From Nitrososphaerota archaeon (GTDB lineage Archaea > Thermoproteota > Nitrososphaeria > Nitrososphaerales > Gagatemarchaeaceae), in NCBI GenBank assembly GCA_029785825.1, contig JAFLYY010000001.1, positions 649,374-713,373 of the forward strand: 64,000 nucleotides of DNA, read 5' to 3'. Both the position numbers and the translations under genes were made by a program. The notes beneath the pieces were generated by a model that searched no databases, was not told the DNA's origin, and saw only the letters and a list, made by a program, of their open reading frames with translations. This document shows, in pieces, positions 10,485 to 63,893 of this stretch. How positions within the stretch are numbered: the first letter of the stretch is position 1; every line of letters begins with the position of its first letter.

Positions 10485-10513
10485 AGTAAAATGCTCTACA
10501 GGCGTGATATCAC
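10485..10513 (+). promoter_or_regulatory. TATA-like box (AGTAAAAT) followed by a perfect 10-nt palindrome GTGATATCAC
   Basis: AGTAAAAT lies at 10485-10492 and GTGATATCAC at 10504-10513. They are 35-60 nt upstream of the GTG start at 10547. Confidence 0.3.
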
Positions 10514-10546
10514 ACGCTAGAGCGAAAAGTCAGGCTTGCGCAGGCA

Positions 10547-11533
10547 GTGGGACTATGGCTAGCCGAAGGGGACAAGTTAACCAAGCGAGAAATCACATTT
10601 ACTAACAATCAACCTTACCTTATCGCCCTCTTCCATAGGCCAGTTCATGAGAATCTCCATCCGAAGCACACGCCTCGCATTGCAGTATATCTTCCCAATC
10701 TGGACATCCCTTACGAAAAACCTGTTGGGTGGGCAAGATGTCGAGTGTATGTGGATAAAAGGGCAAACGTGCCGTACTACATCTACCGGGTGAGCGGAGT
10801 AAAGACTGTCAAGAGTTGGAGAGCGCTTGTATCTTCTGTCTCCAGCGACACGAGTGACTACGGACCAGTTCTGCAGGGTTTCTTCGCTGGAGAGGGAAAT
10901 GTTAGAGAGAGTGCCCATCACTCGCGACTAGTCAGAATTGCACAGGGAGAGCCTTATCCCCTGCTGGAAACAATTCTGCGCCACTTTGGAATCTCGTTCA
11001 AGTACGGAGGCCATAGGGAGTATTCGATTTCTGGCCGCGACAACTTCGAGAAAATCCTCGCATTAGGAGCAGCTCATCTTCATCGTTCGAAGCATAAGAA
11101 ACTTCTCAGAATGATGGAGAGATACCGGCAGCACCACTATCCGTATCATGCCCTACACGCGTTGGTACTGGCCAGACTCTCGACTCCCCGAACTGCTGAG
11201 GACCTTGCTATCGACCTGAAGCGCTCGACGTCGCGGCTTCGTCAGGTTCTGTGCGATTTGAGGTCCAAGGGAGATATCAAGATGTACCATGTCAACTCGA
11301 CATACTTCTGCGTAAGGGCAACCTCCGGGGTAGTGGCAATCTCGAAGCAGAAGGCTCGGATTCTTGCTTTGATGGAGGCTCTCCATCGTCCTTTCGAACT
11401 GTCCGCAGAGTTGAAGAGGAATCGAAAGGCGGTCACCCGCCGGTTGCGCGAACTTGAACACATCGGCTTGGTCTATCTGGAAAAGGCTAATTGGCACAAA
11501 AGTCCGACAACCAGCCGGGTGATTGTAAGATGA
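10547..11533 (+). CDS. LAGLIDADG-type homing endonuclease-like protein fused to two C-terminal winged-helix domains
   Basis: Two LAGLIDADG motifs are present (GLWLAEGD at the N terminus, LQGFFAGEGNV about 105 aa later). Two HTH-like segments follow (TAEDLAIDLKRSTSRLRQVLCDLRSKGDIKMYHV; ELSAELKRNRKAVTRRLRELEHIGLVYLE). Confidence 0.7.
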   Translation: MGLWLAEGDKLTKREITFTNNQPYLIALFHRPVHENLHPKHTPRIAVYLPNLDIPYEKPVGWARCRVYVDKRANVPYYIYRVSGVKTVKSWRALVSSVSSDTSDYGPVLQGFFAGEGNVRESAHHSRLVRIAQGEPYPLLETILRHFGISFKYGGHREYSISGRDNFEKILALGAAHLHRSKHKKLLRMMERYRQHHYPYHALHALVLARLSTPRTAEDLAIDLKRSTSRLRQVLCDLRSKGDIKMYHVNSTYFCVRATSGVVAISKQKARILALMEALHRPFELSAELKRNRKAVTRRLRELEHIGLVYLEKANWHKSPTTSRVIVR

Positions 11534-12235
11534 CGATAGTCGGTGGGCTCGACGAAGCTGGGAGAGAGCAATGGCCCTCCATGCTCCCCAACAGGTTGCC
11601 TACTGGGACCCCTCGTTGTTGCGGGAATCTCTATTGAAAGAAGCAAGGTCAGGAAACTGAAGGAGATTGGCGTAAAGGACTCCAAGCTACTCTCGGCGGC
11701 TAGGAGGGATGAACTCTACCCCCAGATAAGGGAACTCGCCGAACACGTCCACTGGGTTGGAATTCCGCCGAGGGAGATAGACGAAGTCGTGACGACCGGC
11801 CGGAGGCTTCGGAAGCTCAACTATCTGGAGGCGATTTACTTCGCCAGGGTCATCGCCCATCTGGGGGCGGAGAAGGTAACTGTGGACGCCTCTGACGCCG
11901 TCGCCGACCGCTTCGGAAGGGACATCTCCGCCAACTTGGCTGCGAAGGTGAAGATTGCCTCCCTGCACAAGGCCGATATGAACTTCCCAATCGTGTCGGC
12001 AGCCTCCATAGTGGCCAAGGTCGAGAGGGACAGACAGGTGGAGCTCCTAAAGCAGGTGCACGGGGACTTCGGGTCGGGGTACCCTTCAGACCCAGTTACC
12101 ACAGACTTCTTCACCAGGTGGCTGGCTCGCGGGGCCCCCCTTCCCCTCTACGTGAGGAAGAGCTGGAAGACCTGGGACCGCTATGCCAGACTCGCGGGCT
12201 TACCCGGCCGCACAGGCTCCCCTACAAGGTTTTAG
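11530..12235 (+). CDS. rnhB: Ribonuclease HII, interrupted by a 28-nt intervening sequence (11565-11592)
   Basis: ATG 11530 encodes MTIVGGLDEAGR. The rest (GPLVVAGISIE..VKDSKLL..HKADMNFPIVSAASIVAKV..GSGYPSDP) is in the +1 frame. The span is 706 nt (3n+1). Removing 11565-11592 gives MTIVGGLDEAGRGCLLGPLVVAG, 225 aa. Confidence 0.85.
11565..11592 (+). other. Candidate BHB (HBh'-type) intron in the rnhB mRNA
   Basis: UGGG (11559-62) pairs with CCCA (11587-90). The 3-nt bulges are AGA (11563-65) and ACA (11591-93). The inner helix is GAGCA (11566-70) with UGCUC (11582-86). Cleavage after the second bulge nucleotide gives exactly the junction needed for DEAGRGCLLGPLVV. Confidence 0.7.
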
Positions 12236-12262: not shown

Positions 12263-12382
12263 TTGAAGGTCAGCATCGAAATCGTCGCCGTGACCCCCGA
12301 GTCGCTCTTCGACCCTCGCGTCCTGGACTTCCAGAACCTGAAGTCCCGTGGACTGGTGTTCATCCCGGGACCCGGAGGATAG
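12263..12382 (+). CDS. Possible small ORF (39 codons) ending in Gly-Gly
   Basis: TTG start, MKVSIEIVAVTPESLFDPRVLDFQNLKSRGLVFIPGPGG then TAG. 32 of 38 codons end in G/C, like genuine genes here. No SD was seen and the ORF is too short for a full beta-grasp fold. Confidence 0.25.
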   Translation: MKVSIEIVAVTPESLFDPRVLDFQNLKSRGLVFIPGPGG

Positions 12383-12522
12383 GTCGACGAGGAGAGCGTG
12401 AGGATAGGGGATGTCGTCCGCCAGACGCCTCCCAGGGGGTTCGAGTCCCGATGGCGCCCCGCTTCGGCGTGGCGGTCGGAGGCCGCGCGACGCCTGACCG
12501 TCGCCCCACCCGGATTCCGATG

Positions 12523-13182
12523 CTAGCCAGCCTGGATCGCGTATACCAGCGCGTGGTCCTTCTCGAATGGGCTGAGCTCTGTCACGCTCCTGACCTTGAA
12601 CCCGGCGCCTTCGAGCTTGGCCGTCTCGTCCGCGTACACCCGCTCCGGCTCCTTCAGGACGTCGATGCTCCTCGCCTTGACCACCAGGAGGAGAGTCCCG
12701 CTCCCCGCGAGGAGGGCCCTGCAGTTCGCGATGGCTATCTCTGTCTGGTCCGGCTGGGCTATGTCGCAGTACACCACGTCAACCTTCGAGATCGAGTACT
12801 TCGATGGGTCCCTGGCGTCGGCGACGAAGGGGACCACGTTCCTCCTTTCCCTGGCTACGCGTTCCACGAACTCCCTGGCTACCCTGGGAGAGAACTCCAC
12901 CCCTATCACCAGCCCGCTGGGGCCGACGAGGTCGGAGACGTGCGAAGGGGTCGTCCCCGTCGACGCCCCTAGGTAGAGTACCCTGGACCCTTCGCGGACG
13001 ATGTCGTCTGGGAGCCCCTTCAGCATGGCTGCGGCCAGCTTGCTCCTGAAAGGGTCCCAGGTCCGGAACTCGACCCCTCCTCTGACGACGAGGTCCTCGT
13101 TGTACACCCTCTTCCCCGGCGCCAGGTTCATCGTCAGAAGGGCGCTCCTTCCGTTCCTCTCCTCCCTGAGGAGGCGCGTCAT
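12523..13182 (-). CDS. flpA: Fibrillarin (C/D box rRNA/tRNA 2'-O-methyltransferase)
   Basis: VLYLGASTGTTPSHVSDLV, RNVVPFVADARDP and DVVYCDIAQPDQ are present. ATG 13182 overlaps the nop5 stop (ATGA on the minus strand). Confidence 0.92.
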   Translation of the reverse strand: MTRLLREERNGRSALLTMNLAPGKRVYNEDLVVRGGVEFRTWDPFRSKLAAAMLKGLPDDIVREGSRVLYLGASTGTTPSHVSDLVGPSGLVIGVEFSPRVAREFVERVARERRNVVPFVADARDPSKYSISKVDVVYCDIAQPDQTEIAIANCRALLAGSGTLLLVVKARSIDVLKEPERVYADETAKLEGAGFKVRSVTELSPFEKDHALVYAIQAG

Positions 13183-14093
13183 CTCCTTCTGAACTTCTCT
13201 CGCCTTTGAGGCCTTCCTTCCTTCCTCGGCCTCCCGCTGGGCTCCGGCTTCCGCCGGGGAGGCTCCTTGTACTTCTCCTTGATGCTCTCGAGCCTCTTGT
13301 CCAGCCCTGCCTTGATGGAAGCGTCCTCGGCCCCGCGGTAGTAGTCGACCCGCGCGGCGATGGCTATCTTGTTGGCCAGGGTCCTCGCTATCTTCCCCCG
13401 CTGCCACTTGGGGGCGGTGTGGACCGCCTGGTGCTGGAAGAGGATGCCGTGCTTCGGAGGCCTCGCCCCCGTCCTGAGGGACCTGAACAGGGCCTTCTCG
13501 GCCCCCAGGATCTGGATCGTGCTCGCCGGGAGGACCGCCAGCCTGTCCAACCCTCCGGCCTTGGCCATGAGCCTGGCGCCTATGGTGGCTCCCGCCACTT
13601 CCGCGACGTTCGGGGCGACCTTCTTCATCTGTGACCCGACGTACTCGTCGAGCCCGCCCCTGAGGTTGCTCAGCTGCACCGCCAGCGCGGCGAGCGCTTT
13701 CACCCTGCCGATGTCCCCGTCCGAGATGGTCCCGCCCTTGGACCTGTCCCTGGCCTCCAAAATCGCGTCGACCTTCTTGTCGGTGAACCCCCTGCCGGCT
13801 AGGGCCTCCTTCGAGAACCCCTCCCGTCCCCCTATCTCTGAAATCATCTTGCAGAGGGCGATGTTGTCCTGGACCATCTGGATCAGCTCGGGAAAGTGGA
13901 GCCCGTACCACTCGGAGGCACGGGTCGCCGTCACGTTGAGGTGCTTGTCAGTGTCGTCCAGGGCCTGTATCGCCTGGACCAGGTGCAGGTCGGGGCGGGA
14001 TGATGCTTCGCGTATCGCCGCTTCCGCTTCGGCTATGCTCTTCTGGCGGAGCGCCTCGAACTCAGGGGATCCGGGCGTCGGTTCGATGGACAA
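13179..14093 (-). CDS. nop5: C/D box sRNP protein Nop5 (Nop56/58), apparently without the N-terminal domain
   Basis: The Nop domain is present (AGATIGARLMAKAGGLDRLAVLPASTIQILGAEKALFR..PKHGILFQH) with a Lys/Arg-rich tail. It forms an operon with fibrillarin. Confidence 0.88.
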   Translation of the reverse strand: MSIEPTPGSPEFEALRQKSIAEAEAAIREASSRPDLHLVQAIQALDDTDKHLNVTATRASEWYGLHFPELIQMVQDNIALCKMISEIGGREGFSKEALAGRGFTDKKVDAILEARDRSKGGTISDGDIGRVKALAALAVQLSNLRGGLDEYVGSQMKKVAPNVAEVAGATIGARLMAKAGGLDRLAVLPASTIQILGAEKALFRSLRTGARPPKHGILFQHQAVHTAPKWQRGKIARTLANKIAIAARVDYYRGAEDASIKAGLDKRLESIKEKYKEPPRRKPEPSGRPRKEGRPQRREKFRRR

Positions 14094-14129
14094 CTTGAGG
14101 GCGCTCGACCCTCACGTGATTAAAGGGTT

Positions 14130-14474
14130 TCACAGAAACGACTCGATGGCTTCCTTGAGGACGGACCTGTGGCACTCCGACGGGTCCTTCTCGGTGCAGA
14201 GGAGGGTGATGGTCCCTTTCTTTGACTCCCGGGCAAGCCCTTCGACGATGGCCTCTTTCCCCTTCAGGGACCTCATGTACTCACGCCTGAACTCAGGCCA
14301 GTCGACCTTTCCGGCCTTCCTGCGTCTGACGAGGTCCATCGGGGTCCCGAGCTCCTTGATCCAGACATCGACCTTGTCCTTGGAGATTCCCCTGGGCCAC
14401 AACGACATGACCAGCACCCTGCGTCCGTCGGAGGCCTCGGGCGGCGAGTAGACCGACTTCCCTATCTTGATCAA
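14130..14474 (-). CDS. DUF488 (YeaO-like) family protein
   Basis: RVLVMSLWPRGISKDKVDVWIKELGTP..FRREYMRSL..ITLLCTEKDPSECHRSVL resembles DUF488. Confidence 0.65.
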   Translation of the reverse strand: MIKIGKSVYSPPEASDGRRVLVMSLWPRGISKDKVDVWIKELGTPMDLVRRRKAGKVDWPEFRREYMRSLKGKEAIVEGLARESKKGTITLLCTEKDPSECHRSVLKEAIESFL

Positions 14475-14667
14475 TAAGACGACCGCCCTCCTGGCGAAGA
14501 CAGCTGCGGAACCTCCTCCCTCGACTGTCCCCGGACCGGCCGGGGCGTTTTATCGGTTGTCCCAGTGGTCTCAGGGCGCCCCTGACCCGGAGCGCGTCTG
14601 ACTGAAAGCCGGGAGGAGCACGTCCCCGGCGAGAAGGCGGGGGCCGCCGGGGCCCGGACCGTCCTCA

Positions 14668-14680
14668 GAAAGATTAAATG
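14668..14680 (+). promoter_or_regulatory. BRE/TATA-like element GAAAGATTAAATG upstream of the eS30 gene
   Basis: The AT-rich box lies about 40-50 nt upstream of ATG 14720. A strong SD, AGGAGGT, sits at 14703-14709. Confidence 0.4.
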
Positions 14681-14719
14681 CGGAAGACGGTCGCCTGTAC
14701 TCAGGAGGTTAGAGCAAGA

Positions 14720-14918
14720 ATGCCGACCCACGGAAGTCAGCAGACCAGCCTCAAACTGGCTGCCTTCAGTCACGAAGGCTGGCAAGGTTAGATCCCAGAC
14801 TCCGAAACTCGAGGGGAAACCAAAGGAAAGCAAGATCCCCAAAGTCAGGAACAAGCGGACCTACGAGAAGCGCTTCACCCTGAAGCGCAAGCCCGGCCAG
14901 AACTGGATCAGACAGTGA
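14720..14918 (+). CDS. rps30e: 30S ribosomal protein S30e, interrupted by a 31-nt intervening sequence (14739-14769)
   Basis: SD plus ATG encode MPTHGS, and this frame then hits TAG at 14789-14791. The conserved core [35 protein letters not shown] is in the +1 frame, ending at TGA 14916-14918. The span is 199 nt (3n+1). Removing 14739-14769 gives [19 protein letters not shown]..., 55 aa. Confidence 0.85.
14739..14769 (+). other. Candidate BHB (HBh'-type) intron in the rps30e mRNA
   Basis: GAAG (14733-36) pairs with CUUC (14764-67). The 3-nt bulges are UCA (14737-39) and AGU (14768-70). The inner helix is GCAG (14740-43) with CUGC (14760-63), plus CCA (14745-47) with UGG (14757-59). Cleavage after the second bulge nucleotide recreates a CUC Leu codon. 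Confidence 0.7.
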
Positions 14919-16510
14919 CAGCGCAGGCTCTGGACAGGCTCCAGGAAGCCGCCTCGTACATAGCGGAGCTAGTCGCCAGGGGGACGGTCCGCACGAGGAG
15001 CGACCTGGAGAAGCTGAAGAAGAGGGCCGCGGCGGACTTCCAACTCGACAGGTACCCTTCGAATGCGGAGATCCTTGCCCACCTTCCGCCGGGGGACAGG
15101 GACCGGAGCGCGGGGCTCCTGCGCGTCCACCCGAGGCGCAGCGCCTCAGGCATCGTCGTCGTCACCGCCTTCTCGGCTCCCTTCTCCTGCCCCCACGGGA
15201 CCTGCGTCTTCTGCCCCGGAGGGCCGCGGCAGGGGACCCCCCAGTCGTACCTGCCGCAGAGCCCGGGGATGCAGTCGGCGCTCGAGGTCCGGTTCGACCC
15301 GCGCCTGCAGGTCGAGAAGTCACTCGCCAAGTACGTCGCCAACGGCCATGCCGTGGGGAAAGTGGAGGCCATCATAGAGGGGGGGACGTTCATCGCGCTC
15401 GATCCGGGATACCAGACCGCGTTCGTGAAGGGGATCTACGACGGCCTCAACGGCGCGGTGTCCGGGACGCTCTCAGAGTCCCAGACCGCCAACGAGACGG
15501 CGGCCAGCAGGTGCGTGGGGCTGACCCTCGAGTCGAAGCCAGACTGGTGCAGACCGAGGGACGTGGACCTGATGCTCGGGCACGGGATCACGAGGGTCGA
15601 GATAGGGGTCCAGAGCCTGAGGCCTGAGGTGTTACTGCGCAGCAACCGCGGGCACACGGTCGAGGATGCGGCGAAGGCGTTCCAGGTCGCCCGGGACGCA
15701 GGGCTGAAGATCACGGCCCACATGATGCCCGGCCTCCCCGGAGCCACCCCTGACGGAGACCTCGAGGACCTCCGCAGGCTCTTCGATGACGAGGCCTTCC
15801 GCCCCGACATGTCAAAGCTCTACCCGACGCTTGTGGTCCCTGGGACGGCGCTGGCGAAGCAGTTCAGCGCGGGACTCTACAAACCGTATCCCTTTGAGAC
15901 GGTGGTCGAACTCCTCAGCGACATGAAGGGCTTCGTCCCCCCCTGGCACAGGATCATGCGGATACAGAGAGAGATACCAGCCGCCGAAATAGAGGGCGGG
16001 GTGAAGGACGGGAACCTCAGGCAGCTCGTCCTGCAGAGGGCCAGGGAGAAGGGGATAACATGCCGGTGCATCAGGTGCAGAGAAGTCCTTCTGAGGGACC
16101 CGGAGGCGCTCGGCAGGGACGACTCCCTGACCTACAGGGAGGCTCGCTACACCGCCTCGGGCGGGGAGGAGGTCTTCGGGTCGTTCGAGTTCGAAAGGTC
16201 CGGGACCATCGCAGGCTTCGTCCGGATGAGGGCCCCTTCTCCCCTGGCCCATAGAACGGAGATGAGGGGGGGCGCGGTGGTTAGGGAGCTCAGGGTATAC
16301 GGGGTGGTGGTGGGAATAGGGAAGAAGGAGGACGCCGCGTGGCAGCACAGGGGGATCGGCGCGTCCCTTTTGGAGCGCATGGAGGAAGCGGCGTCGTCAG
16401 AGTTCGGCGCCAGGAAGGTCCTCGTGATAAGCGCCGTGGGGACCAGAGGGTACTACCGGAGGCTCGGGTACGAAAGGGACGGCCCGTACATGGCGAAGGG
16501 CCTTCGCTAA
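14915..16510 (+). CDS. elp3: Elp3-type radical SAM / acetyltransferase (tRNA wobble uridine modification)
   Basis: The radical-SAM cluster motif [12 protein letters not shown] is present with a C-terminal GNAT region ([14 protein letters not shown]). GTG 14915 overlaps the rps30e stop (GTGA). Confidence 0.88.
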
Positions 16511-20362: not shown

Positions 20363-20776
20363 ATGTTAGCCATCCATACGCATCTGCTGTTCGGGACCAC
20401 GGTCGGGTTCTTCGCCGTCATCGCCGTGGCGTCTGCGCTGGACCGCTTCGGCACCGCCATGTTCCGGAGGGGGGTCGCGATGCCGTTCTTCCTGGGGCGG
20501 CACCGCCTGCACCACAGGAGGGTCCTGTTCGTGGGGCTCCCTCTGGCTTATGTCGCTGTCGCTTCTCTGGTGCTCCTCGGCTTCGTGCAGATCGTATGGA
20601 GCCTGCTCTGGACCGGGCTCGCCGGAACGGTCCTCGTGTCCGTCGACTGCCTCATGGTCGACCTGACCATAGACTACGCCTGGAAGGGGAGGGGGTGGCG
20701 GTTCCTCAGGCACGAGTTCCTCTACTTCGCCGTCCCGGCGTACGCCTTCGCCGCGTTCCTCCGCTTCGCCATCTGA
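20363..20776 (+). CDS. Hypothetical membrane protein (about 4 TM)
   Basis: A 137-aa ORF with several hydrophobic helices. A TATA-like CTTTATAGA lies about 40 nt upstream. Confidence 0.5.
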   Translation: MLAIHTHLLFGTTVGFFAVIAVASALDRFGTAMFRRGVAMPFFLGRHRLHHRRVLFVGLPLAYVAVASLVLLGFVQIVWSLLWTGLAGTVLVSVDCLMVDLTIDYAWKGRGWRFLRHEFLYFAVPAYAFAAFLRFAI

Positions 20777-20816
20777 CTGTGAAAGGTGCTCCCCTGGAAT
20801 CGTAGAGGGGGCAGCC

Positions 20817-21336
20817 TTACACCCTCGGCAAGGACAGGTCCTGAGCGGTGGGACCGAGAACCAGCCCGTAGAAACTCACGTCCCACCACCTCCCGAACTT
20901 GAACCCCGCCTCCTTGAAGTCCCCCGCGTGCTCGAACCCCAGCCCTGTGTGGAGCCGGACGCTCGCCGGGTTGGGGGGCACGATACCGGCGATCACTGCG
21001 TGATAGCCAAGGCGACCGGCCCTGGCCAGGACCTCCCGCATCGCTGCCGTCCCCGCCCTGGCCCCCCTGCGCTCCCTGCGGACGTAGAAGGAGCTCTCGG
21101 CGGTGAGGGAGTAGGCAGGCCTGTCCCTGAAGGGGGAGAGAGGCGTATCCTGCCACCGAGCCTCTCGCTTCGACCACCACGATGGGGTGCCTCGCGGTGT
21201 GTCCCTCGAACCAGGCAGTCCGCTGTTCGAGGGTCTGAGGATGGATGCCGAAGGTCGCATGAGGGTTGACGACCGCCTCGTCGTAGATCTCCAGCAGCGC
21301 AGGGATGTCAACAGCTCTGGCATCCCTCACCTTCAC
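20817..21336 (-). pseudogene. GNAT N-acetyltransferase (phosphinothricin acetyltransferase-like) with a frameshift at a homopolymer
   Basis: The N-terminal half (MKVRDARAVDIPALLEIYDEAVVNPHATF..GSVAGYASL) and the C-terminal half (SPFRDRPAYSLTAESSFYVRRERRGARAG..GFKFGRWWDVSFYGLVL) lie in different frames. They join at a C5 run (G5 on the plus strand, 21132-21136). The span is 520 nt (3n+1). Confidence 0.75.
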
Positions 21337-21594
21337 CGCGGCTTCCGCGCTCGTTCTACCTGTAAAGCATCGGCACAGAGCTCAGTACGGCCGGACGTTG
21401 GCTCCCATAGGTCGAAGTAGAGGGAGCTCTCCGGATTCCCCAGGAGGCACGGGAGAGCCAGGGAAGCCCCCCGGGGGGAAGGTCCGGCGACGACGAGCAC
21501 AGAGAAGGCAAAGGCATGGACGGGGAGGTGCAGAAGCCCGGAGCGGCGCTCGCTGGCCATCGGCTCAGGCTGAAGAAGGGGTGCGCCGCCGGAA

Positions 21595-37722: not shown

Positions 37723-39482
37723 CCTTTCACGCCTCCGGAGTAGAGCCCCTTCAGGAGGTAACCCTGGGCGACGATGGACAGGATGATCACAGGTATCGCG
37801 AGGATGATACCCGAGGAGGCCAGTTGGGTCCAGACGTTGTTGCTGATGGTGCCGCCCGTGCTGTCAGGGTCGAACAGTATCGCGAACGTCGTGACGGTGT
37901 TCGACCCCACAGGGGGGAAGGTGAAGGAGAACGGGGTCTGCGAGAGGACGAGCGGGAACAGGAGCAGGTGCCATGAGAAGATGAACGCCACCATCCCCGC
38001 GGCTATGAGCCCGGGCCTGGCCAGCGGCATCACGATGGAGAGGAAGGAGCGTATCCGCGAGTATCCGTCGACCAGGGCGGCCTCCTCGTACTGCTTCGGG
38101 AGCGAGCTGTAGAAGTTCGTCATGGTCCAGACGACGAACGGGACGGTGAACAGTGGCTCGGTGAGTATCAGCGCCGTCCACGTGTTGAGCAGGCGGAGCC
38201 CCACCATCATGGAGAAGATCCCGTATACGAAGACTATGGACGGGAGGGAGAAGGTGTAGATCATGATGCCCAGAAGCGCACGCTTGCCCTCCCTCGCTAT
38301 GATGTAGGCGGCGGGCGCGGCCAGGAGTATGGTCACCGCCGTGACGGCGCAGGACACGAAGAACGTCGTGATTATCTCGGGAGACGCCTGGGCCACCGTC
38401 TGCAGGAACACGTCAGTGATTATCTTGGTGGGATAGATGATCGGGGGGAGGAGGTAGTCGAGCGACTGGGGCCTGAACGCGATCAGCCCCATCCAGTAGA
38501 TGGGGAAGAGAATGAACACGGATACGAGGCCGCAGACGAGGTACAGGATGTACCTGAAGGGGGCGTTGAAGACCCGTCGGGATCCTGGGAGGCGTACCTT
38601 CGGCGCCCGGATCTTGGGGAGCCAGGTCCTCCCTCTCCCGTTCTTGGAGGCTCCGATCGTGGTCCTGACCAGCAGGAGCCCCGGGATGCTGGCCAGGAGC
38701 GCGACGAATATGGCCGCGGCCAGCCCCTGAGGCGCGAGGTTGGCATAGAACATCTCGGCGTAGGCATACACCACCATGGTCGCCATGGTGATGGGGGGGA
38801 CCCCGCCCGCGCCGCTGAGGATGTAGGGGAGGTCGAAGTTCCCGAAGCCGAGTATCATGATCATGAGGAAGGCGGTGACGATCGCCCCTTTCGCCAGGGG
38901 GAGGGCCACGGAGGAGTAGTAGTCCCACATCTCCATGCCGTCAACCGACGCCGCCTCCTTCACCTGCTTGGGGACGGAGGACAGGCCCGCGAGGATGATG
39001 AGGAAGGCGAGGGGGATGGAGGCCCATACCCCCACCGTGGTCAGCGAATAGAGCTGCAGGGCGGGGCCGAGCCAGTTGATGGCGGGGAGGCCGAGCGACG
39101 TCAGGATCGGGTCAAGGGGGCCGTACCCGGGGTTGAACAGGGTCGCCCAGATCAGGGCGCTCGCTGTGAAGGGTATCATGTAGGGGAGGTACGCTATCAG
39201 GGAGATGGCGCGCTTCGCCCTCCGCCTGCTGTCTACGAGGATCGCAAAGGCGGTGCCGACAAGGACAGAGGCAACGGCGGTTCCGACCGCGAAGAAGACG
39301 GTGTTGTAGACGATCCGCCCGAAGTCGGTCTGGGCGAAGAGCGACACGTACGACGACAGGTCGGACGAAGGGGCGGAGAGGACGACCGATATAATCAGGG
39401 GGACTAGCGCGAAGAAGAACAGATAGGCGACGGCGGGGATGTAGAAGATCCTCTTCGACAGAGCCTCGCCGACGCCGGACAG
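37719..39482 (-). CDS. Fused two-domain ABC transporter permease (MalF-like + MalG-like); start codon unresolved
   Basis: Two EAA loops are present (EAASVDGMEMWDYYSSVALPLAKG; EAALVDGYSRIRSFLSIVMPLARPG). The first canonical start is GTG 39347. The in-frame codons 39348-39482 encode a typical first TM (RIFYIPAVAYLFFFALVPLIISVVLS). Confidence 0.8.
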   Translation of the reverse strand: MSGVGEALSKRIFYIPAVAYLFFFALVPLIISVVLSAPSSDLSSYVSLFAQTDFGRIVYNTVFFAVGTAVASVLVGTAFAILVDSRRRAKRAISLIAYLPYMIPFTASALIWATLFNPGYGPLDPILTSLGLPAINWLGPALQLYSLTTVGVWASIPLAFLIILAGLSSVPKQVKEAASVDGMEMWDYYSSVALPLAKGAIVTAFLMIMILGFGNFDLPYILSGAGGVPPITMATMVVYAYAEMFYANLAPQGLAAAIFVALLASIPGLLLVRTTIGASKNGRGRTWLPKIRAPKVRLPGSRRVFNAPFRYILYLVCGLVSVFILFPIYWMGLIAFRPQSLDYLLPPIIYPTKIITDVFLQTVAQASPEIITTFFVSCAVTAVTILLAAPAAYIIAREGKRALLGIMIYTFSLPSIVFVYGIFSMMVGLRLLNTWTALILTEPLFTVPFVVWTMTNFYSSLPKQYEEAALVDGYSRIRSFLSIVMPLARPGLIAAGMVAFIFSWHLLLFPLVLSQTPFSFTFPPVGSNTVTTFAILFDPDSTGGTISNNVWTQLASSGIILAIPVIILSIVAQGYLLKGLYSGGVKG

Positions 39483-39483
39483 G

Positions 39484-40542
39484 TCAGGCCCCTTCCTTGC
39501 TCAGGACGTGGACTCCCCCCGGGTTAACCGAGAACTTCACCCTCTGCCCCGTGCCCATCCCCCCGACGTCGTGGGCGATCGCCCTGATCTCCACCCCCCC
39601 TATGCTCAGATACACGATTGTCTCGCGCCCTGCGTACTCGAAGGCGGTGGCCTCTGCCTCGTTGGGCCCCGAGCCGAGGACCAGGCTCTCCGGCCTGACC
39701 CCGACCTTGAAGGTCCCGTCTGCGAGGTTCCCGAGGGGGAGGGAGACAGGGGTCGAAGACCCGCCCGAGACCTTGACGTACATGACGTTCAGCGGCGGGC
39801 TCCCGATGAAGGTGGCCGTGAACTCGTCGGCGGGGGAGGCATAGATCTCCCTCGGGGTACCTACCTGGCGGATCTTCCCGTTCCCCATTATGGCGACCCT
39901 GTCAGAGATGGAGAGGGCCTCGGACTGGTCGTGCGTCACGTAGATGGTGGTCATGCCGAACTCCCTCTGCACATCTTTCAGGAACTTCCGGGCCGAGAAC
40001 CTCAGCTGGGCGTCGAGGTTGGAGAAGGGCTCGTCGAGGAGGAACACGTCCGGGTGCTTGATGAGGGCTCTGGCGAGCGCGACCCGCTGCTGCTGCCCCC
40101 CTGAGATCTGGCCGGGCCTCCTGTCCAGGGTCTCGCCTATGCCGAGGCGCCCGGCTATCTCCCTGGCGTCTTTGAGCGCGTCCTCCTTCTTCATCCCCCT
40201 CACCGTCAGAGGAGAGGTGATGTTCTCCATCACGGTCTTGTTAGGATAGAGGGCGTAGTCCTGGAACACCATGCCTATGTTCCTCTTCGCCGGACCCAGG
40301 GCGTCTACGGGTCTCGACCCGATGAAGAGGTGCCCCGAGTCCTGGACCTCGAGCCCCGCGATTATCCTCAGCAGAGTCGTCTTCCCCGACCCCGACGGCC
40401 CCACGAGGGAGAAGAGCTCCCCCGGGGAGATCTCGAGGTCCACATCTTCGAATACTGTGAGCTTTCCGAACCTCTTCGTTATGCCTTGTAACCTTACCCC
40501 GGCCGCCCGGGCTTCAGGTCCCGAAAAAGTGTGGGCAGGCAC
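39484..40542 (-). CDS. ABC transporter ATP-binding protein (MalK/UgpC-like)
   Basis: Walker A GPSGSGKTT, signature LSGGQQQRVALARAL and Walker B VFLLDEPFSNLD are present with a MalK-type C-terminal domain. Confidence 0.9.
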   Translation of the reverse strand: MPAHTFSGPEARAAGVRLQGITKRFGKLTVFEDVDLEISPGELFSLVGPSGSGKTTLLRIIAGLEVQDSGHLFIGSRPVDALGPAKRNIGMVFQDYALYPNKTVMENITSPLTVRGMKKEDALKDAREIAGRLGIGETLDRRPGQISGGQQQRVALARALIKHPDVFLLDEPFSNLDAQLRFSARKFLKDVQREFGMTTIYVTHDQSEALSISDRVAIMGNGKIRQVGTPREIYASPADEFTATFIGSPPLNVMYVKVSGGSSTPVSLPLGNLADGTFKVGVRPESLVLGSGPNEAEATAFEYAGRETIVYLSIGGVEIRAIAHDVGGMGTGQRVKFSVNPGGVHVLSKEGA

Positions 40543-48418: not shown

Positions 48419-49294
48419 CTATATCCTTGCGGTCGTGCCGTCGAGGGTTCTCCAGGACGCGCGGCCCCCCTTGACGGAGACCTTCCCCGGGCGCATGTGC
48501 CCTGGCATCACGACGGCGTCCTCGGCGGAGGCCAGCCTGTAGAAGCGCGCCCTGCTCGACTCCATCTCCCTCGGCTCGTTCCAGGAGGCGACCAGCTCGG
48601 GATGCTCAACCTCCTCCTCTAGATGGATGAGGTCTCCGACGCAGTAGCAGCTCATCCCCTTCGACTTCACCGCGACCACCTGGTGCCCCGGGCTCTCCCC
48701 CGGGAACGGCTCGACGCTCACCCCCCCGCCGAGGTCTTTGGCGCCGTCGAGGAGCGAGAGCCTCCCCGCTTGCTGGACCGCCACGAGGGTGTCGACGACG
48801 TCAGGGTCCCGGACCTCTCTGGCTTCGGCGATGGAGCTCATCCGCCAGTCCTTCTCCGGGATTATGCAGTCAGCCTTCGGGAAGGTAGGAACGGCGTTCC
48901 CCCCCGCGCCCCGGGTCGCTCCAGCGAAGTGGTCGAAGTGGAGGTGGGTGACTACGACGTGGGTGACTTCCGTCGGGGCGACCCCGACCGACTCCATCTG
49001 GGCGGTCAGCGCGGGCGGGGGCGCGTACCCCGCCGGAGGCGTGAAGTGCCCAGGGGCAACGAGCCGGGAGTAGTCGCTGGGGTCCACCACGACCTTGACC
49101 CCTCCTGATTCTATCAAGAACGACTGGGCGGGGAACCCCGCCTTCTTCCCTATCTTCTCTTCCGGGAAGTAGCGCGAGAGGTCCACGCTTTTGTCGTAGA
49201 CTTCGTCCAGCCCGAGCAGTATGTCTCCCACGTTGAAGACCGTGACCCTGGCCTCCCCCACCTTCAGCGCTAGAGGGCCCATCGACCTAGGCAC
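48419..49294 (-). CDS. MBL-fold metallo-hydrolase
   Basis: The HxHxDH motif VVVTHLHFDHFAG is present. Confidence 0.75.
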   Translation of the reverse strand: MPRSMGPLALKVGEARVTVFNVGDILLGLDEVYDKSVDLSRYFPEEKIGKKAGFPAQSFLIESGGVKVVVDPSDYSRLVAPGHFTPPAGYAPPPALTAQMESVGVAPTEVTHVVVTHLHFDHFAGATRGAGGNAVPTFPKADCIIPEKDWRMSSIAEAREVRDPDVVDTLVAVQQAGRLSLLDGAKDLGGGVSVEPFPGESPGHQVVAVKSKGMSCYCVGDLIHLEEEVEHPELVASWNEPREMESSRARFYRLASAEDAVVMPGHMRPGKVSVKGGRASWRTLDGTTARI

Positions 49295-49844
49295 GCCACC
49301 AGTCGTACCTCAGGAAGTCGATCGTCTTCCTGTCCTTGTCTGAGATGGCGATGATGAACTGCTTCCTCACCGTGGTGGCCAGCCTCCCCGACCTCACCAT
49401 CGAGGTCGCAGTCATCTTCGAGTCGGGGGAGACCACCTGGACGATGTAAGGGGCGTGGTCTATCCCCGGCCCGTGTTCGTAGACCGCGAAGTCCGACCCG
49501 AACTTTATCCCCGGGGTCACCACGAAACCGGCTTCCCTGAGCTTCCTGTAGACCTGGAACTTCTCGGCGAAGTCGTTGTAGGATGCCTCGCACAGCTGGT
49601 GGAGCTTCTTGGGGGCGATCTCCTTCCCCGAGGCGTCTTCCACCCCTATCACCTTCTTGGTGGTCAGGTAGTACCCTTCCATCAGGTCTAGGATGAGGGG
49701 GGCGTCGAACAGGAAGTCCTTCGGCTTCGGGATGCCAAGGGGCTTGCCGTAGTACCCTTCTTTGAACAGCCTGCGGGACTCCTCGATGTCCCAGACCACT
49801 ATCCTGTTCTCGAAGAGCCTGCCCCTGGCCCGCGCCCCGGGCAC
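49287..49844 (-). CDS. endA: tRNA-splicing (BHB) endonuclease
   Basis: A 185-aa protein with GYYGKPLG. The catalytic Tyr/His/Lys contexts are FAVYEHGPGIDHAPYIVQV and RKQFIIA. Confidence 0.88.
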   Translation of the reverse strand: MPGARARGRLFENRIVVWDIEESRRLFKEGYYGKPLGIPKPKDFLFDAPLILDLMEGYYLTTKKVIGVEDASGKEIAPKKLHQLCEASYNDFAEKFQVYRKLREAGFVVTPGIKFGSDFAVYEHGPGIDHAPYIVQVVSPDSKMTATSMVRSGRLATTVRKQFIIAISDKDRKTIDFLRYDWWRA

Positions 49845-59285: not shown

Positions 59286-59558
59286 TCAGCGGAAGCTCTG
59301 GCCGGCTGCTGGAGCGCTCGCAAGCAGGGCGAGCTTGTCTGACCTCCCCAGTTTCTTTATCTCCGCCTCCCGCTCCAGCGCCCTTCCCCGGCTCTCTGCG
59401 GGCTCGGAAAAGGCGAGCCTGACCGGTCTCCGACCGCGGGTGTACTTCGCCCCTCGCCCCGAATTGTGCTCTTCGACCCTCCTCGCCAGGTCGGTGGTGA
59501 CCCCAGTGTACAGAGTCCCGTCGGCGCACCTGACGATGTACACGTAGTATGGAGCCAC
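59286..59558 (-). CDS. GIY-YIG domain protein (UPF0213/YhbQ-like)
   Basis: YYVYIVRCADGTLYTGVTTDLARRVEEHNSG is present. GTG 59558 gives 90 aa. Confidence 0.75.
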   Translation of the reverse strand: MAPYYVYIVRCADGTLYTGVTTDLARRVEEHNSGRGAKYTRGRRPVRLAFSEPAESRGRALEREAEIKKLGRSDKLALLASAPAAGQSFR

Positions 59559-61751: not shown

Positions 61752-62522
61752 TTGGCGCACCAGCCCAAGGACGAAGAGGGGAGGCCGTATCACGTCAGGT
61801 TGTCGAAGGCAGATGTCGGAAGGGTGGCCCTCCTCCCGGGGGACCCGGGGCGGGTCCCGCTCATCGCAGAGCGCCTCGACGGCGCCAGGGAGCTTAACTC
61901 CAACAGGGAGTACGTCGCCTACGGCGGGGCGACGGGAGGGGAGAAGGTGGTGGTCATGAGCACAGGCATCGGCGGGCCTTCGACCGCCATCGCCGTCGAA
62001 GAGCTGGCGCGACTGGGGGTCGAGGTGATGATACGGGTCGGCACCTGCGGTGCCATCCAGCCTGCCCTGAAGCTGGGGTCGCTGGTCGTCGCGGATTCGG
62101 CCGTCAGGATGGACGGCACCAGCCGCCAGTACATCATGGACGGGTACCCTGCGGCGGCAACTCCGGGGGTGGTCATGGCGCTGGCGGAAGCTGCCGCGTC
62201 CCTTCACAAGAAGGCGGCAGTGGGGGTCTCGGCCTCGACCGACTCGTTCTACGTGGGCCAGGGGAGAGAGGGGTTCGGCGGATACCTCCCCTCCGACAAA
62301 GCGCGCGTAGTGGAAGACCTCCGGGCGGCGAAGGTCCTCTGCTTCGAGATGGAAGCGGCCACGCTGTTCACCCTGGGGAGGCTGTTCGGACTCAAGACAG
62401 GGGCCGTCTTCGCGGTGATAGCCAACCGCGCGACGGACGAGCTCGGCCACGACGTCGGGGTGGACGACGCGATAGAAGTGGCGCTCGCCGGGGTAAGGGG
62501 CCTGAAGAAACACTCCGTCTAA
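61752..62522 (+). CDS. Uridine/purine nucleoside phosphorylase (PNP/UDP family 1)
   Basis: LLPGDPGRV, MSTGIGGPS, VRVGTCGA and EMEAATLF are present. Confidence 0.82.
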   Translation: MAHQPKDEEGRPYHVRLSKADVGRVALLPGDPGRVPLIAERLDGARELNSNREYVAYGGATGGEKVVVMSTGIGGPSTAIAVEELARLGVEVMIRVGTCGAIQPALKLGSLVVADSAVRMDGTSRQYIMDGYPAAATPGVVMALAEAAASLHKKAAVGVSASTDSFYVGQGREGFGGYLPSDKARVVEDLRAAKVLCFEMEAATLFTLGRLFGLKTGAVFAVIANRATDELGHDVGVDDAIEVALAGVRGLKKHSV

Positions 62523-63739
62523 GGGGCCAGGACAACCCCGAGCACGTCCCGGCCCATCATGTGTCCGAGGGAGCCGCGCTTGGCGTCGGCCTCCGTGAAC
62601 CTCCTCCCGTCCCCCTTCTCGGAGGTCACGAGCAGCGGGAAGGGGTCGTCGGAGTGCATCTTGATCGTGCAGGGAGTGCTGTGGTCGCAGGAGACCCCCA
62701 GGCGAAGGCCCTCCAGCTTCCCGGCCACGGAGAAGAAGTCCCTGTCGATCTCCTCGATGCTCCTCTTCTTCCCCCGGGCGTCGCCGTCGTGCCCGAACTC
62801 ATCGGGCCCCTTGATGTGAACGTAGACCAGCCCCCCCTCGCGCGCAGCCGACGCGAACAGCGACGCTTTCTCCCGCAGGTCGCGCCTGTCCTTTATCGGG
62901 ACCATGGTCATCCCGAGGAGCTTCGCGATCCCGACCTCTGCCGGCATCTCCACCAGCGCGGTCCCCTTGCGCCCGTACTTCTCCTCGAAGGACTGGAGCA
63001 CGGGGATGTGGTCGCCTGCGTCGCGGAGGAGGACGCAGTTGGCCGGGAGCTTGCCAGCCTCCGCCCTCTCGGCGTTGACCTCGCTCTTCTGAAGCGCCCT
63101 GGCAGCCTTGGCAGCGAACTCGTTGACCAACTCGGCGGCCCTCGCCGCGCCCGCGTCCCTGGTCTCAGGGACGCTCTTCGCCACCCGGTCCGTCCCCTTG
63201 GTCTCCTTGGCCGCCCCGAACCCGCCGACCCTCGAGTACGCCGGGTCCGTGTTCGAGATCATTGCCGAGAGAGGGCGGCCGGCCCTGATCACGAGCACGC
63301 CGCGGTAGGACACGGTCGCCCTGAAATCGAACTCGGCGCCGGCGAGCGACACCCGGCTGATGTCCTTGGCGAGGCGCTCCGCTTCGTCCTGGGTCAGGTC
63401 CCGCCCCGCCCTCCTGTCGACTATCACGTCCCCCCTCGCGGACGCCAGGTTCGCCCGCAGAGCCAGGTACCCGTCCTTCATCTCCATCCCCGAGCCCACC
63501 GCCTCCACCACTCCCCTCCCGGGGTAACCCGCGCCGAAGGAGTATCCGAGCATGCTGAAGACCGCTATGTCAGACTCCGGGGCTATCCCCTTCCCGACCG
63601 AAGTGACCGTCCCCAGCCTAGACCTCGAGGCTATCCTGTCGAGGTTTGGGGTGTACGCACCCTGCAGCGGGGTGACGAAGTTGAGCCCCGGGACGGGCCT
63701 GTCGCCGCACCCGTCGAGGAGGACATATCCGGCCTTCAA
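62519..63739 (-). CDS. apgM: Cofactor-independent phosphoglycerate mutase, archaeal type
   Basis: TTG 63739 gives MKAGYVLLDGCGDRP... HIKGPDEFGHDGD is present. The protein is 406 aa. Confidence 0.8.
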   Translation of the reverse strand: MKAGYVLLDGCGDRPVPGLNFVTPLQGAYTPNLDRIASRSRLGTVTSVGKGIAPESDIAVFSMLGYSFGAGYPGRGVVEAVGSGMEMKDGYLALRANLASARGDVIVDRRAGRDLTQDEAERLAKDISRVSLAGAEFDFRATVSYRGVLVIRAGRPLSAMISNTDPAYSRVGGFGAAKETKGTDRVAKSVPETRDAGAARAAELVNEFAAKAARALQKSEVNAERAEAGKLPANCVLLRDAGDHIPVLQSFEEKYGRKGTALVEMPAEVGIAKLLGMTMVPIKDRRDLREKASLFASAAREGGLVYVHIKGPDEFGHDGDARGKKRSIEEIDRDFFSVAGKLEGLRLGVSCDHSTPCTIKMHSDDPFPLLVTSEKGDGRRFTEADAKRGSLGHMMGRDVLGVVLAP

Positions 63740-63893
63740 GCTCCCGGGACAGGGGCGCCGCGGGTCCCCATTTGTCCCTTTCCCAGATCCCGGCAGAGCG
63801 TCTCGGCGCCTGGCCGCGGCGCGGAGAGATCCGGTTTCCGGCCCGTCCGCCTCCAAAGGCTAATATCGTGTCAGGGGCGCCGCAGGCGCGCCT

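Follow-up and report, generated by a model that had tools for sequence, protein, structure and literature searches.

Introns in archaeal pre-mRNAs have been described from cbf5 of Crenarchaeota such as Aeropyrum and Sulfolobus (Watanabe 2002; Yoshinari 2006; Yokobori 2009; PMC2738675), and the literature on archaeal pre-mRNA splicing up to 2025 cites cbf5 of this group only (including PMC5829648 and PMC2738675). No cbf5 intron occurs in Cenarchaeum or Nitrosopumilus (PMC2738675). The crenarchaeal cbf5 introns are short, relaxed BHB introns of a protein-coding gene in organisms with a hetero-oligomeric EndA, are gained and lost in a patchy manner among relatives, and are readily taken for frameshifts (PMC2738675). 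Cleavage of HBh' and hBH introns is restricted to (alpha-beta)2 and epsilon2 enzymes that carry the Crenarchaea-specific loop (L1/CSL) with its lysine (PMC5829648). The TACK phyla, including Thaumarchaeota, have an (alpha-beta)2 EndA with the L1 loop and a separate beta subunit (PMC5829648).

These properties of the cbf5 introns appear to be shared by two interruptions found in a 64,000-nucleotide stretch of the genome of a soil-type Nitrososphaerota (Thaumarchaeota) archaeon, which was analyzed as a whole and is referred to as the window (GC 64%). However, the hosts here are the genes for ribosomal protein eS30 and RNase HII (rnhB), and the phylum is Nitrososphaerota. Both insertions fall within codons 7-13, in the best-conserved motif of each host; eS30 has two alternative sites, and splicing is predicted from sequence. 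The sequence-only reading had proposed the introns without giving coordinates, and both were located by scanning the window. Rfam and ARAGORN detected neither a tRNA nor any known RNA family there. The features concerned are as follows.

10508..11533, plus strand: double-motif LAGLIDADG-fold ORF, assigned by fold model, Foldseek, and invariant motifs
11530..11564, plus strand: exon 1 of rnhB (RNase HII), 11 codons and 2 nt, MTIVGGLDEAG(R), assigned by homology of the N-terminus
11565..11592, plus strand: predicted rnhB BHB (HBh') intron, 28 nt, assigned by motif and covariation
11593..12235, plus strand: rnhB exon 2, giving a predicted spliced product of 225 aa (Pfam RNase_HII)
14720..14738, plus strand: exon 1 of eS30 (ribosomal protein S30e), ATG followed by 5 codons and 1 nt, MPTHGS
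14739..14769, plus strand: predicted eS30 BHB (HBh') intron, 31 nt, assigned by motif and covariation
14770..14918, plus strand: eS30 exon 2, giving a predicted spliced product of 55 aa (Pfam Ribosomal_S30)
49287..49844, minus strand: endA, predicted catalytic alpha subunit of an (alpha-beta)2-type tRNA-splicing endonuclease, assigned by Pfam, NCBIfam, and PDB alignments

Both introns are built on a 4-bp helix (H) that has a 3-nt bulge at either end, one on each strand. The predicted splice sites are two nucleotides into each bulge, and in both introns the outer helix is reduced to 1 bp, hence their assignment to the HBh' class. The rnhB intron (11565-11592, AGAGCAATGGCCCTCCATGCTCCCCAAC) lies downstream of the ATG at 11530 and interrupts codon 12 within the DEAGRG motif. 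Its H helix is a perfect 4-bp pairing of tggg (11559-11562) with CCCA (11587-11590), and its inner helix (h') pairs GAGCA with TGCTC (5 bp) and continues beyond a bulged A into TGG/CCA. The bulges read ag-A and AC-a, with hyphens at the splice sites, and the junction can be slid rightward by 1-2 nt with the mRNA unchanged. Unspliced, the rnhB frame runs into a stop after 34 codons. The spliced N-terminus reads MTIVGGLDEAGR joined to GCLLGPLVVAG, and the 225-aa product spans positions 2-198 of 199 of Pfam RNase_HII (E 2.4e-40).

The eS30 intron (14739-14769, AGCAGACCAGCCTCAAACTGGCTGCCTTCAG) interrupts codon 7 within the HGSLTKAGK motif, downstream of the ATG at 14720. It pairs gaag (14733-14736) with CTTC (14764-14767) as a perfect 4-bp H helix, and its h' helix consists of GCAG/CTGC (4 bp), an A bulge, and CCAG/CTGG, with bulges tc-A and AG-t. 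The spliced N-terminus opens with MPTHGS before exon 2, and the 55-aa product spans positions 2-56 of 58 of Pfam Ribosomal_S30 (E 1e-12). The sequence-only reading had described two introns of 28 and 31 nt that both start with AG, with a perfect 4-bp central helix, an inner helix of 4-5 bp and an almost absent outer one, placed within the first 7-12 codons in the most conserved host motif. All of this holds for the two introns located here, with inner helices of 5 and 4 bp and insertion in codons 12 and 7. The leading AG is not a signal, since it is not conserved among the rnhB relatives, in which the intron begins with AG, TG, or AA.

In both genes, excision at the BHB sites restores the conserved reading frame, and the junction set by BHB geometry is the one demanded by protein homology. 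If G-U pairs are admitted, chance alone makes the relaxed motif common in a window of 64% GC, so that its occurrence is no proof by itself. When pairing is limited to Watson-Crick, with H of 4 bp and h' of at least 4 bp, it is found at 2 of 127,840 positions for an intron length of 28 nt and at 5 of 127,840 for 31 nt, the two real sites counted in. Therefore, its position exactly at the frame-restoring junction is far beyond chance. When the window sequences are folded thermodynamically on their own, the BHB does not stand out (z = -0.4 and -1.5), nor does the minimum-free-energy structure recover it. The minimum-free-energy hairpin of eS30, which joins the 3' end of the intron to exon 2, was rejected as the true structure because it is not conserved and fails the compensatory-change test.

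Comparison with relatives provides a further line of evidence. Eight loci of the fibrillarin set, and 9 others besides, have the rnhB intron at the identical site; its length ranges over 22-36 nt and its sequence varies from phylum to phylum, yet the BHB persists. In the 9-sequence set, 100% of cells are paired, 5 of the 10 pairs show compensatory changes, and the first H pair is UA, CG, AU, or UG, following the wobble base of the Ala codon. Uninterrupted rnhB with the same N-terminus is found in 61 related loci. The eS30 intron recurs at the identical site in 24 related loci. Among 20 eS30 sequences, 94.6% of cells are paired and four pairs carry double changes; an H pair is GC in 15 sequences, AU in 5, and broken in 0, and h' pairs switch between AU and GC and between GC and CG. 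This covariation score is reached by 0 of 500 shuffles, and slid controls are 26-48% paired. Contiguous, uninterrupted eS30 is present in 9 loci (including L005, L034, L040, and L041). Relatives also possess a second, alternative eS30 intron site, and their type-2 eS30 introns form the full hBHBh' (H 4, h' 4-5, and h 3 bp). Given the rare motif, its same-site recurrence with compensatory changes, and the uninterrupted sister genes, we conclude that eS30 and rnhB are new hosts of genuine BHB introns, both of the relaxed HBh' class that the sequence-only reading had named and that comparative covariation supports.

The rnhB intron has an additional partner. The LAGLIDADG-fold ORF ends at a stop that overlaps the rnhB ATG (ATGA); at its 5' end no canonical start is found in the window, the ATG at 10491 being in another frame. 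Its structure model (pLDDT 94.5) carries two C-terminal winged helices and matches I-DmoI (TMt about 0.65, probability 1.00), bI3 maturase, I-Tsp061I, PI-SceI, and WhiA in Foldseek. A sequence search of the PDB gave no match for the ORF, and fold comparison alone succeeded. Pfam LAGLIDADG_3 falls below cutoff for the window copy but matches many homologues, and the two motifs, G15-L-W-L-A-E20-G21 (GLWLAEG) and G124-x-F-A-G-E129-G130, are invariant in 35 sequences. All 15 inspected copies of the ORF lie directly upstream of an intron-bearing rnhB, a pairing found in five archaeal phyla (Nitrososphaerota, Woese-, Aenigmat-, Nanohalo-, and Micrarchaeota), and the ORF is present in 0 of the 61 intron-less loci (Fisher p = 2e-7). 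In some intron-bearing loci it is degraded (a remnant in L030) or lost (L035 and L036). The window and the related locus L001 are about 92% identical on both flanks of 10448-12491, a block that is absent from L001 or only 68% identical and in which GC drops to 0.50-0.55. We infer that this block of approximately 10448-12491, containing the LAGLIDADG-fold ORF and the intron-bearing rnhB, replaced the resident rnhB.

That every checked copy of the ORF precedes an intron-bearing rnhB suggests a homing cassette. The putative free-standing endonuclease would cut the conserved sequence coding for DEAGRG in rnhB alleles that lack the intron, carriers would be protected by the ORF-less BHB intron that splits the target, and repair would transfer the endonuclease gene along with the intron and a large part of rnhB by co-conversion. 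Whether the mini-intron and the upstream gene form such a two-part selfish cassette, spread between TACK and DPANN archaea, is a matter on which our judgment is evenly divided. The ORF could otherwise be a domesticated WhiA-like DNA-binding regulator that is co-transcribed with rnhB and linked to the intron only by history, as might be expected from the rank of WhiA among the top structural matches, the two winged helices, the label 'transcriptional regulator' borne by relatives in the sources, and the window copy's score under the LAGLIDADG_3 cutoff. Such a regulator is harder to reconcile with motif glutamates (E20 and E129) that stay invariant across 35 sequences of 31-61% identity, with a patchy distribution across phyla, with the degraded or lost copies at intron-bearing loci, and with a block of foreign composition that was replaced as a unit. 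We regard the regulator as possible but unlikely; it competes with the selfish cassette only.

For excision of both introns, the candidate enzyme is EndA. Its ORF (49287..49844, minus strand) has a GTG start and encodes 185 aa with the Pfam domains tRNA_int_endo_N (residues 7-81, E 5e-15) and tRNA_int_endo (residues 92-173, E 9e-30); together with a TIGR00324 endA score of 91 bits (cutoff 59.6), these confirm the earlier identification as a 185-aa EndA. The matches in the PDB, 3P1Z_B (1.6e-42), 2ZYZ_B, and 2CV8_A, have alignments starting at residues 5-14, and EndA aligns gaplessly through the Crenarchaea-specific loop with the alpha subunits of A. pernix (APE), P. aerophilum, and S. tokodaii. 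The loop reads GKPLGIPKPKDFLFDAP, with Lys40 equivalent to APE Lys44, and the stretch GYYGKPLGIPKPKDFLFDAPL shows no gaps against APE, K40 facing K44. The context of the Tyr/His/Lys triad is present (FAVYE, GIDHAP, and VRKQF, versus FAVYR, GIDHAP, and VRKKF in APE), and the catalytic His of GIDHAP is the position mutated to Ala in 3AJV. These three crenarchaeal subunits share with the protein a size of about 180-186 aa, the N- and C-terminal domains, the loop, the conserved Lys, and the GIDHAP His, whereas the protein here is a thaumarchaeal orthologue known from its sequence. EndA orthologues across Nitrososphaerota are all about 185 aa.

The gapless alignment through the loop and its lysine thus predicts that EndA is the catalytic alpha subunit of an (alpha-beta)2, broad-specificity enzyme and not an alpha4 subunit, which settles in favor of the former a choice left open by the sequence-only reading. 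Its forecast of a broad-specificity endonuclease agrees in type with the Lys40 alignment and with published specificity (PMC5829648), and EndA is supported as the kind of enzyme reported to cut relaxed BHB motifs. The weight that had been placed on finding endA in the same window is misplaced, however, as the gene is 35 kb away and every archaeon has one. A strict EndA, either homotetrameric or without a working loop, would leave the introns to be removed by something else. Such an enzyme might be suspected since 185 aa also suits an alpha4 subunit, since a phmmer search with EndA found no beta subunit among the ORFs of the window and of 89 related loci and a large protein search returned alpha orthologues only, and since the (alpha-beta)2 architecture is by itself insufficient for broad specificity in M. 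kandleri (PMC5829648). Nevertheless, the best matches are crenarchaeal alpha subunits, Thaumarchaeota are grouped with the (alpha-beta)2, L1-loop enzymes (PMC5829648), and alignment of the loop-less enzymes 1A79 and 5X89 (M. jannaschii and M. kandleri) to EndA begins only at residue 50. A strict EndA is accordingly judged very improbable.

With a broad-specificity EndA, expression of the two genes would proceed as follows. The eS30 and rnhB pre-mRNAs would fold into the BHB, in which nucleotides at the close of exon 1 would pair with those at the intron's 3' end to give the 4-bp central helix, with a closed 5' bulge and an inner hairpin. EndA, together with a putative beta subunit, would cut two nucleotides into each 3-nt bulge, and an RtcB-type ligase would join the exons, so that the resulting mRNAs would encode eS30 and RNase HII at full length. 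Circularization is the probable fate of the released intron. As a whole, the explanation that combines two HBh' introns, an (alpha-beta)2 EndA, EndA-dependent splicing, and replacement of the rnhB block is held with high confidence.

It is also conceivable that ribosomes pass the 28-31 nt by translational bypassing or another form of recoding, in loose likeness to T4 gene 60, since the gaps are short, close to the 5' end, and hairpin-bearing. Against bypassing stands a covarying helix between exon-1 nucleotides and the 3' terminus of the insert, whose geometry is exactly that of a BHB with a 3-nt bulge at each junction. No take-off codon is matched by a landing codon, and inserts that range over 22-36 nt and differ in sequence among phyla maintain the BHB. 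Bypassing is thus scarcely credible in place of RNA splicing. Lesions (pseudogenes) or assembly artefacts, of which a plain 1-nt frameshift in a GNAT gene of the window and many 1-nt frameshifts in long-read MAG loci are reminders, can be dismissed almost entirely, since 26-32-nt inserts stand at identical sites in dozens of independent assemblies, their structure is kept by compensatory changes, the exon-2 frames are intact, eS30 is a ribosomal protein, and conservation already contradicts the idea.

The sequence-only reading had extrapolated from two introns to a genome in which interrupted coding sequences may be common, an expectation that finds no local support. Beyond rnhB and eS30, the window holds no convincing intron candidate, its only other broken gene is the frameshifted GNAT, and fourteen neighboring gene families lack internal introns in 80 related loci. 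Scans by motif alone gave hundreds of chance hits even with frame and start-codon filters and are uninformative in DNA of 64% GC. Several individual sites were rejected. The genes for a GIY-YIG protein (59286-59555, MAPYYVYIV), the phosphoglycerate mutase ApgM (62519-63859, MKAGYVLLDG), and THEP1 begin with GTG, TTG, and TTG, respectively. An intron at 13017-13044 in the fibrillarin gene would remove the conserved RSKLAAA motif, the Gar1 candidate at 5927-5957 has no helix, the ABC permease at 39500 has no canonical start but also no BHB, and the 5' end of the LAGLIDADG-fold ORF has a frame offset. The density of two introns in 70 genes is partly explained by the rnhB intron having ridden on a putative, horizontally acquired cassette.

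If these assignments are correct, EndA-dependent mRNA splicing would gain two further hosts, including a ribosomal-protein gene, whose introns occur in dozens of genomes of Nitrososphaerota with the backing of covariation, and archaeal mRNA introns would reach one more major phylum as well as DPANN lineages. A search of a limited body of literature, which does not prove novelty, found no earlier report of BHB introns in thaumarchaeal mRNAs and nothing linking LAGLIDADG proteins with RNase HII. For annotation, gene callers truncate intron-bearing genes or start them after the intron (as for rnhB in L087-L089), and the LAGLIDADG-fold ORF of the window is itself called as 254 aa. The strict linkage between the rnhB intron and the LAGLIDADG-fold gene suggests a testable route for insertion and spread of such introns. 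A true cassette would provide a mechanism for the invasion of conserved positions in protein-coding genes of archaea by BHB introns.

Two known systems resemble this proposed arrangement. Some BHB introns of archaea themselves encode LAGLIDADG homing endonucleases, for instance I-DmoI in a 23S rRNA intron of Desulfurococcus and I-Tsp061I, both matched by the ORF model, and likewise pair a BHB intron with a LAGLIDADG gene. In contrast to these, the ORF here is not contained in the intron but directly precedes the host gene, and it has two extra winged-helix domains, while the intron is a mini-intron of 22-36 nt that contains no ORF and interrupts a protein-coding host. In phages, ORF-less group I introns are mobilized in trans by adjacent free-standing endonucleases, such as T4 mobE with the nrdB intron and the cyanophage psbA case (PMC2790892). 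This collaborative homing has its likeness here in a free-standing, in our case predicted, endonuclease gene that adjoins an endonuclease-less intron splitting highly conserved coding sequence, in the co-inheritance of both parts, and in a flanking tract that resembles co-conversion. It differs in that the rnhB intron would be a BHB intron spliced by proteins and not a ribozyme, the hosts are archaea of five phyla and not phages, and the cleavage specificity is putative.

In a scan of the window for AG-initiated segments of 28 and 31 nt, two were located whose removal yields recognisable proteins, RNase HII (rnhB) and ribosomal protein S30e (eS30):

11565-11592, rnhB intron, 28 nt (ATG at 11530)
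14739-14769, eS30 intron, 31 nt (ATG at 14720)

The spliced rnhB N-terminus reads MTIVGGLDEAGR followed by GCLLGPLVVAG, and the product spans Pfam RNase_HII positions 2-198/199. Spliced eS30 begins MPTHGS before the junction and spans Pfam Ribosomal_S30 positions 2-56/58. Without splicing, the rnhB frame runs for 34 codons before a stop and the eS30 frame for 23. The two sites match the short coding-sequence introns (28 and 31 nt) proposed by the sequence-only reading. As in tRNA, the central helix (H) of the bulge-helix-bulge (BHB) pairs exon positions -6 to -3 with intron positions n-6 to n-3, and the bulges comprise exon -2, -1 and intron 1, and intron n-1, n and exon +1. In this register, the central helices are perfect over 4 bp (tggg/CCCA in rnhB, gaag/CTTC in eS30), the inner helix (h') has 5 bp in rnhB and 4 bp in eS30, and the outer helix (h) is a single base pair in both. 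Both introns start with AG and interrupt codon 12 (rnhB) or codon 7 (eS30), and all of these shared traits, the nearly absent outer helix included, had been described correctly beforehand.

The relaxed motif by itself is no evidence of an intron because it is common in this window of 64% GC when G-U pairs are allowed: 40 AG-initiated segments of 28 or 31 nt combine H=4 with h' of at least 3, and broader relaxed-motif scans return hundreds of matches. With Watson-Crick pairs only, H=4 and h' of at least 4, 2 of 127,840 positions (n=28) and 5 of 127,840 (n=31) remain, both introns counted in, and the two junction positions are set independently by protein homology. Single-sequence folding (z-scores -0.4 and -1.5) gave no support for a BHB, and the minimum-energy fold of the eS30 intron is another hairpin.

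Evidence for the structure comes from relatives. A fibrillarin query retrieved 80 syntenic loci from Nitrososphaerota/Thaumarchaeota MAGs, the nearest being L001 (94% fibrillarin identity). The eS30 intron occupies exactly the same site in 24 loci (31-32 nt), and eS30 is uninterrupted in nine (L005, L034, L040, L041, L052-L054, L057, L059). In a gap-free alignment of 20 first-site introns, the proposed structure is paired in 94.6% of cells, dropping to 26-48% when partners are slid by 1-3 columns, and its covariation score was reached by 0 of 500 shuffles. In the central helix, pair 2 is never broken (15 sequences have G-C and 5 have A-U): where exon 1 switches synonymously between GGA and GGG, the intron changes between T and C to match. 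Two h' pairs alternate A-U/G-C and G-C/C-G. The alternative minimum-energy hairpin was rejected, being broken in 15-19 of the 20 sequences and lacking covariation. At a second eS30 site, past ...LTKAGK, a different mini-intron of 19-20 nt is found in 11 loci (L002, L003, L025-L027, L031, L037, L049, L050, L055, L058), with both introns present in L049 (identified by eye). The 10 second-site introns parsed form complete hBHBh' structures (H 4, h' 4-5, h 3).

For rnhB, 61 loci carry an uninterrupted gene encoding GxDEAGRG(C/S), and eight (L006, L014, L030, L035, L036, L045, L048, L056) have an insert of 26-30 nt in the same place. With the paired segments aligned in a fixed register, 90 of 90 cells pair and 5 of 10 pairs are changed on both sides. 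The first central-helix pair, which follows the wobble base of the Ala codon, is U-A (4), C-G (3), A-U (1) or U-G (1), and inner helix variants include GAGCA/TGCTC, GAGCG/CGCTC, AAGCGAT/ATCGCTT and AGACCGCGG/CCGCGGTCT. Selection on a BHB substrate would be expected to produce such pairing in eS30 and rnhB, and these patterns rule out both assembly error and pseudogene decay as the source of the inserts. The covariation in both alignments backs the relaxed HBh' form assigned earlier. Apparent non-canonical starts at the right Shine-Dalgarno distance were also seen in several loci, with ATA instead of ATG in intron-bearing rnhB (L006, L014, L030, L036, L045, L048, L056) and, in eS30, ACG (L002, L034, L040, L041, L050, L052, L055) or GTT (L005).

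The enzyme expected to act on these substrates is encoded within the window:

49287-49844, minus strand, endA, 185 aa, GTG start

Its identification as EndA was borne out by both Pfam domains, tRNA_int_endo_N (residues 7-81) and the catalytic tRNA_int_endo (residues 92-173), and by a score exceeding the curated TIGR00324 endA cutoff. The top PDB sequence matches are catalytic alpha subunits of heterotetrameric enzymes:

3P1Z_B, Aeropyrum pernix (E 1.6e-42)
2ZYZ_B, Pyrobaculum aerophilum
2CV8_A, Sulfolobus tokodaii

The alignment with the A. pernix subunit is gapless over residues 5-184, loop region included, with segment GYYGKPLGIPKPKDFLFDAPL matched to the 21-residue A. pernix loop segment and Lys40 opposite its Lys44. 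For homotetrameric M. jannaschii 1A79 and for 5X89, the M. kandleri fusion enzyme that lacks the loop, the alignments begin at residue 50, past the loop region. The catalytic His is kept in GIDHAP, a residue substituted in 3AJV. HBh'/hBH introns are cut only by (alpha-beta)2 and epsilon2 enzymes, which need an inserted specific loop with a conserved lysine to do so; the M. kandleri enzyme, without the loop, is constrained, and TACK archaea, Thaumarchaeota included, conserve the (alpha-beta)2 type that carries the L1 loop (PMC5829648). Given this loop rule and the aligned loop and lysine, the window EndA is predicted to be the alpha subunit of a broad-specificity splicing endonuclease, which favours the alpha2beta2 option raised by the sequence-only reading over its alpha4 option. 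It is unremarkable within its well-described family; orthologues in a large protein search were alpha only (184-187 aa, 78-100% identical, all Nitrososphaerota), and no beta paralogue was found in the window or any related locus fetched. Structure, covariation and enzyme type together argue, with high confidence, that EndA would cut both pre-mRNAs at the BHB and that RtcB-type ligation would then join the exons.

That endA lies within these 64 kb is not meaningful in itself. The earlier observation is confirmed and its interpretation partly supported: it holds for the type of EndA and for the introns being relaxed BHB motifs, whereas co-location is irrelevant. The flanking genes encode a PhoU_div/DUF47 protein and a metallo-beta-lactamase-fold hydrolase, neither tied to RNA splicing, and in the 64-kb window ARAGORN found no tRNA gene and Rfam gave no match at gathering score.

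When coding potential was compared with start codons across the ~70 genes of the window and each anomaly inspected, no further intron candidate emerged, so for the predicted abundance of introns across the genome the window offers nothing more than the two known sites. A GNAT/phosphinothricin-acetyltransferase-like gene (20722-21381) is broken at 21125-21140 (minus strand) by an extra C within a C5 run, without any insert, splitting GYASL and PFRDRPAY over two frames, a plain frameshift or sequencing error. An ABC permease at 39500 lacks a canonical start (none of ATG, GTG and TTG occurs among the first 51 codons, 39400-39500, minus strand), but also lacks a BHB, and several apparent N-terminal defects are accounted for by GTG or TTG starts. 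The ScpA frame (2734-2810) has no canonical start past the SMC stop, its first GTG lying 55 nt inside SMC; an overlap of the two genes or an unusual ScpA start codon could account for this. Between SRP19 and Gar1, 5209-5928 (~720 nt) lacks a convincing ORF and matches nothing in Rfam even at E<=1, and may be an undescribed or very divergent RNA. Across 14 neighbouring gene families in the 80 loci, tblastn revealed only 1-nt frameshifts, all in long-read MAGs, a weak negative because very short first exons would escape it. Many such frameshifts, in Elp3, FtsJ, Trm1, TFB and Nop5 of L023, L040, L048 and L049, are assembly indels mistakable for interrupted genes.

The rnhB intron is linked to a neighbouring gene:

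10508-11533, LAGLIDADG-fold ORF, low GC, between THEP1 (ends 10456) and rnhB

This ORF ends in a stop codon that overlaps the rnhB ATG. Two LAGLIDADG-like motifs and two winged-helix regions are recognisable in it (Pfam hits fall below cutoff for the window copy), and 35 homologues (31-61% identity) keep GLWLAEG and G.FAGEG invariant, both glutamates included. Among the fibrillarin-found loci, homologues occur only in L006, L014, L045, L048 and L056, with a remnant in L030, all with the rnhB intron; L035 and L036 have the intron without the ORF, and none of the 61 loci with intron-less rnhB has the ORF (Fisher p = 2e-7). Searching with the ORF itself found nine additional copies (L081-L089), in MAGs of Thaumarchaeota (1), Woesearchaeota (3), Aenigmatarchaeota (1), Nanohaloarchaea (1), Micrarchaeota (1) and unclassified archaea (2). 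All nine lie directly upstream of an RNase HII gene with a BHB insert of 22-36 nt between DEAG(R) and G, with matching central helices such as AGGC/GCCT, CGGC/GCCG and CTGG/CCAG. Every copy inspected (window, L006, L014, L030, L045, L048, L056, L081-L089; five archaeal phyla) is thus directly upstream of an intron-bearing rnhB. In L088 (Nanohaloarchaea; 2470-2561), endA lies two genes downstream of the ORF-rnhB pair, probably by coincidence. The window copy may be decaying and 5′-degraded: it lacks a canonical start, with no BHB to suggest an intron-split 5′ end, the only nearby ATG (at 10491, in the stretch 10491-10520) is out of frame and meets TAG after 9 codons, the starts in relatives are normal, and the source gene call is a 254-aa fragment.

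Window and L001 DNA are ~92% identical over 9916-10447 and 12492-16500, whereas 10448-12491 is absent from L001 or just 68% identical and has a GC of 0.50-0.55 against 0.65 in the flanks. Because of this identity break and GC drop, the ORF and rnhB appear to have been exchanged as a block, the replaced rnhB type being that seen in L001. The AlphaFold model of the ORF (mean pLDDT 94.5) matches bI3 maturase, I-DmoI (TM ~0.65 on target), I-Tsp061I and PI-SceI. WhiA, a LAGLIDADG-derived regulator, is another match, and the C-terminus of the model resembles SelB winged helices. A WhiA-like regulator rather than a homing endonuclease is a live alternative. A homing cassette is the simplest reading of the ORF-intron linkage, with about an even chance of being right. 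In such a cassette, a putative free-standing homing endonuclease would travel with an ORF-less intron that splits its likely target, by analogy with phage group I introns, whose homing can be collaborative or in trans (PMC2790892).

Papers on archaeal pre-mRNA splicing up to 2025 cite cbf5 of Crenarchaeota as the sole case, and the cbf5 intron is listed as absent in Cenarchaeum and Nitrosopumilus (PMC2738675). A literature search found neither BHB introns in thaumarchaeal protein-coding genes nor a LAGLIDADG-RNase HII association, an absence that is no proof of novelty. The eS30 and rnhB introns would work like the cbf5 pre-mRNA introns; what is new is the host genes and phyla involved, the location within conserved motifs at the extreme 5′ end, the two alternative eS30 sites and the tie to a free-standing LAGLIDADG-fold gene.
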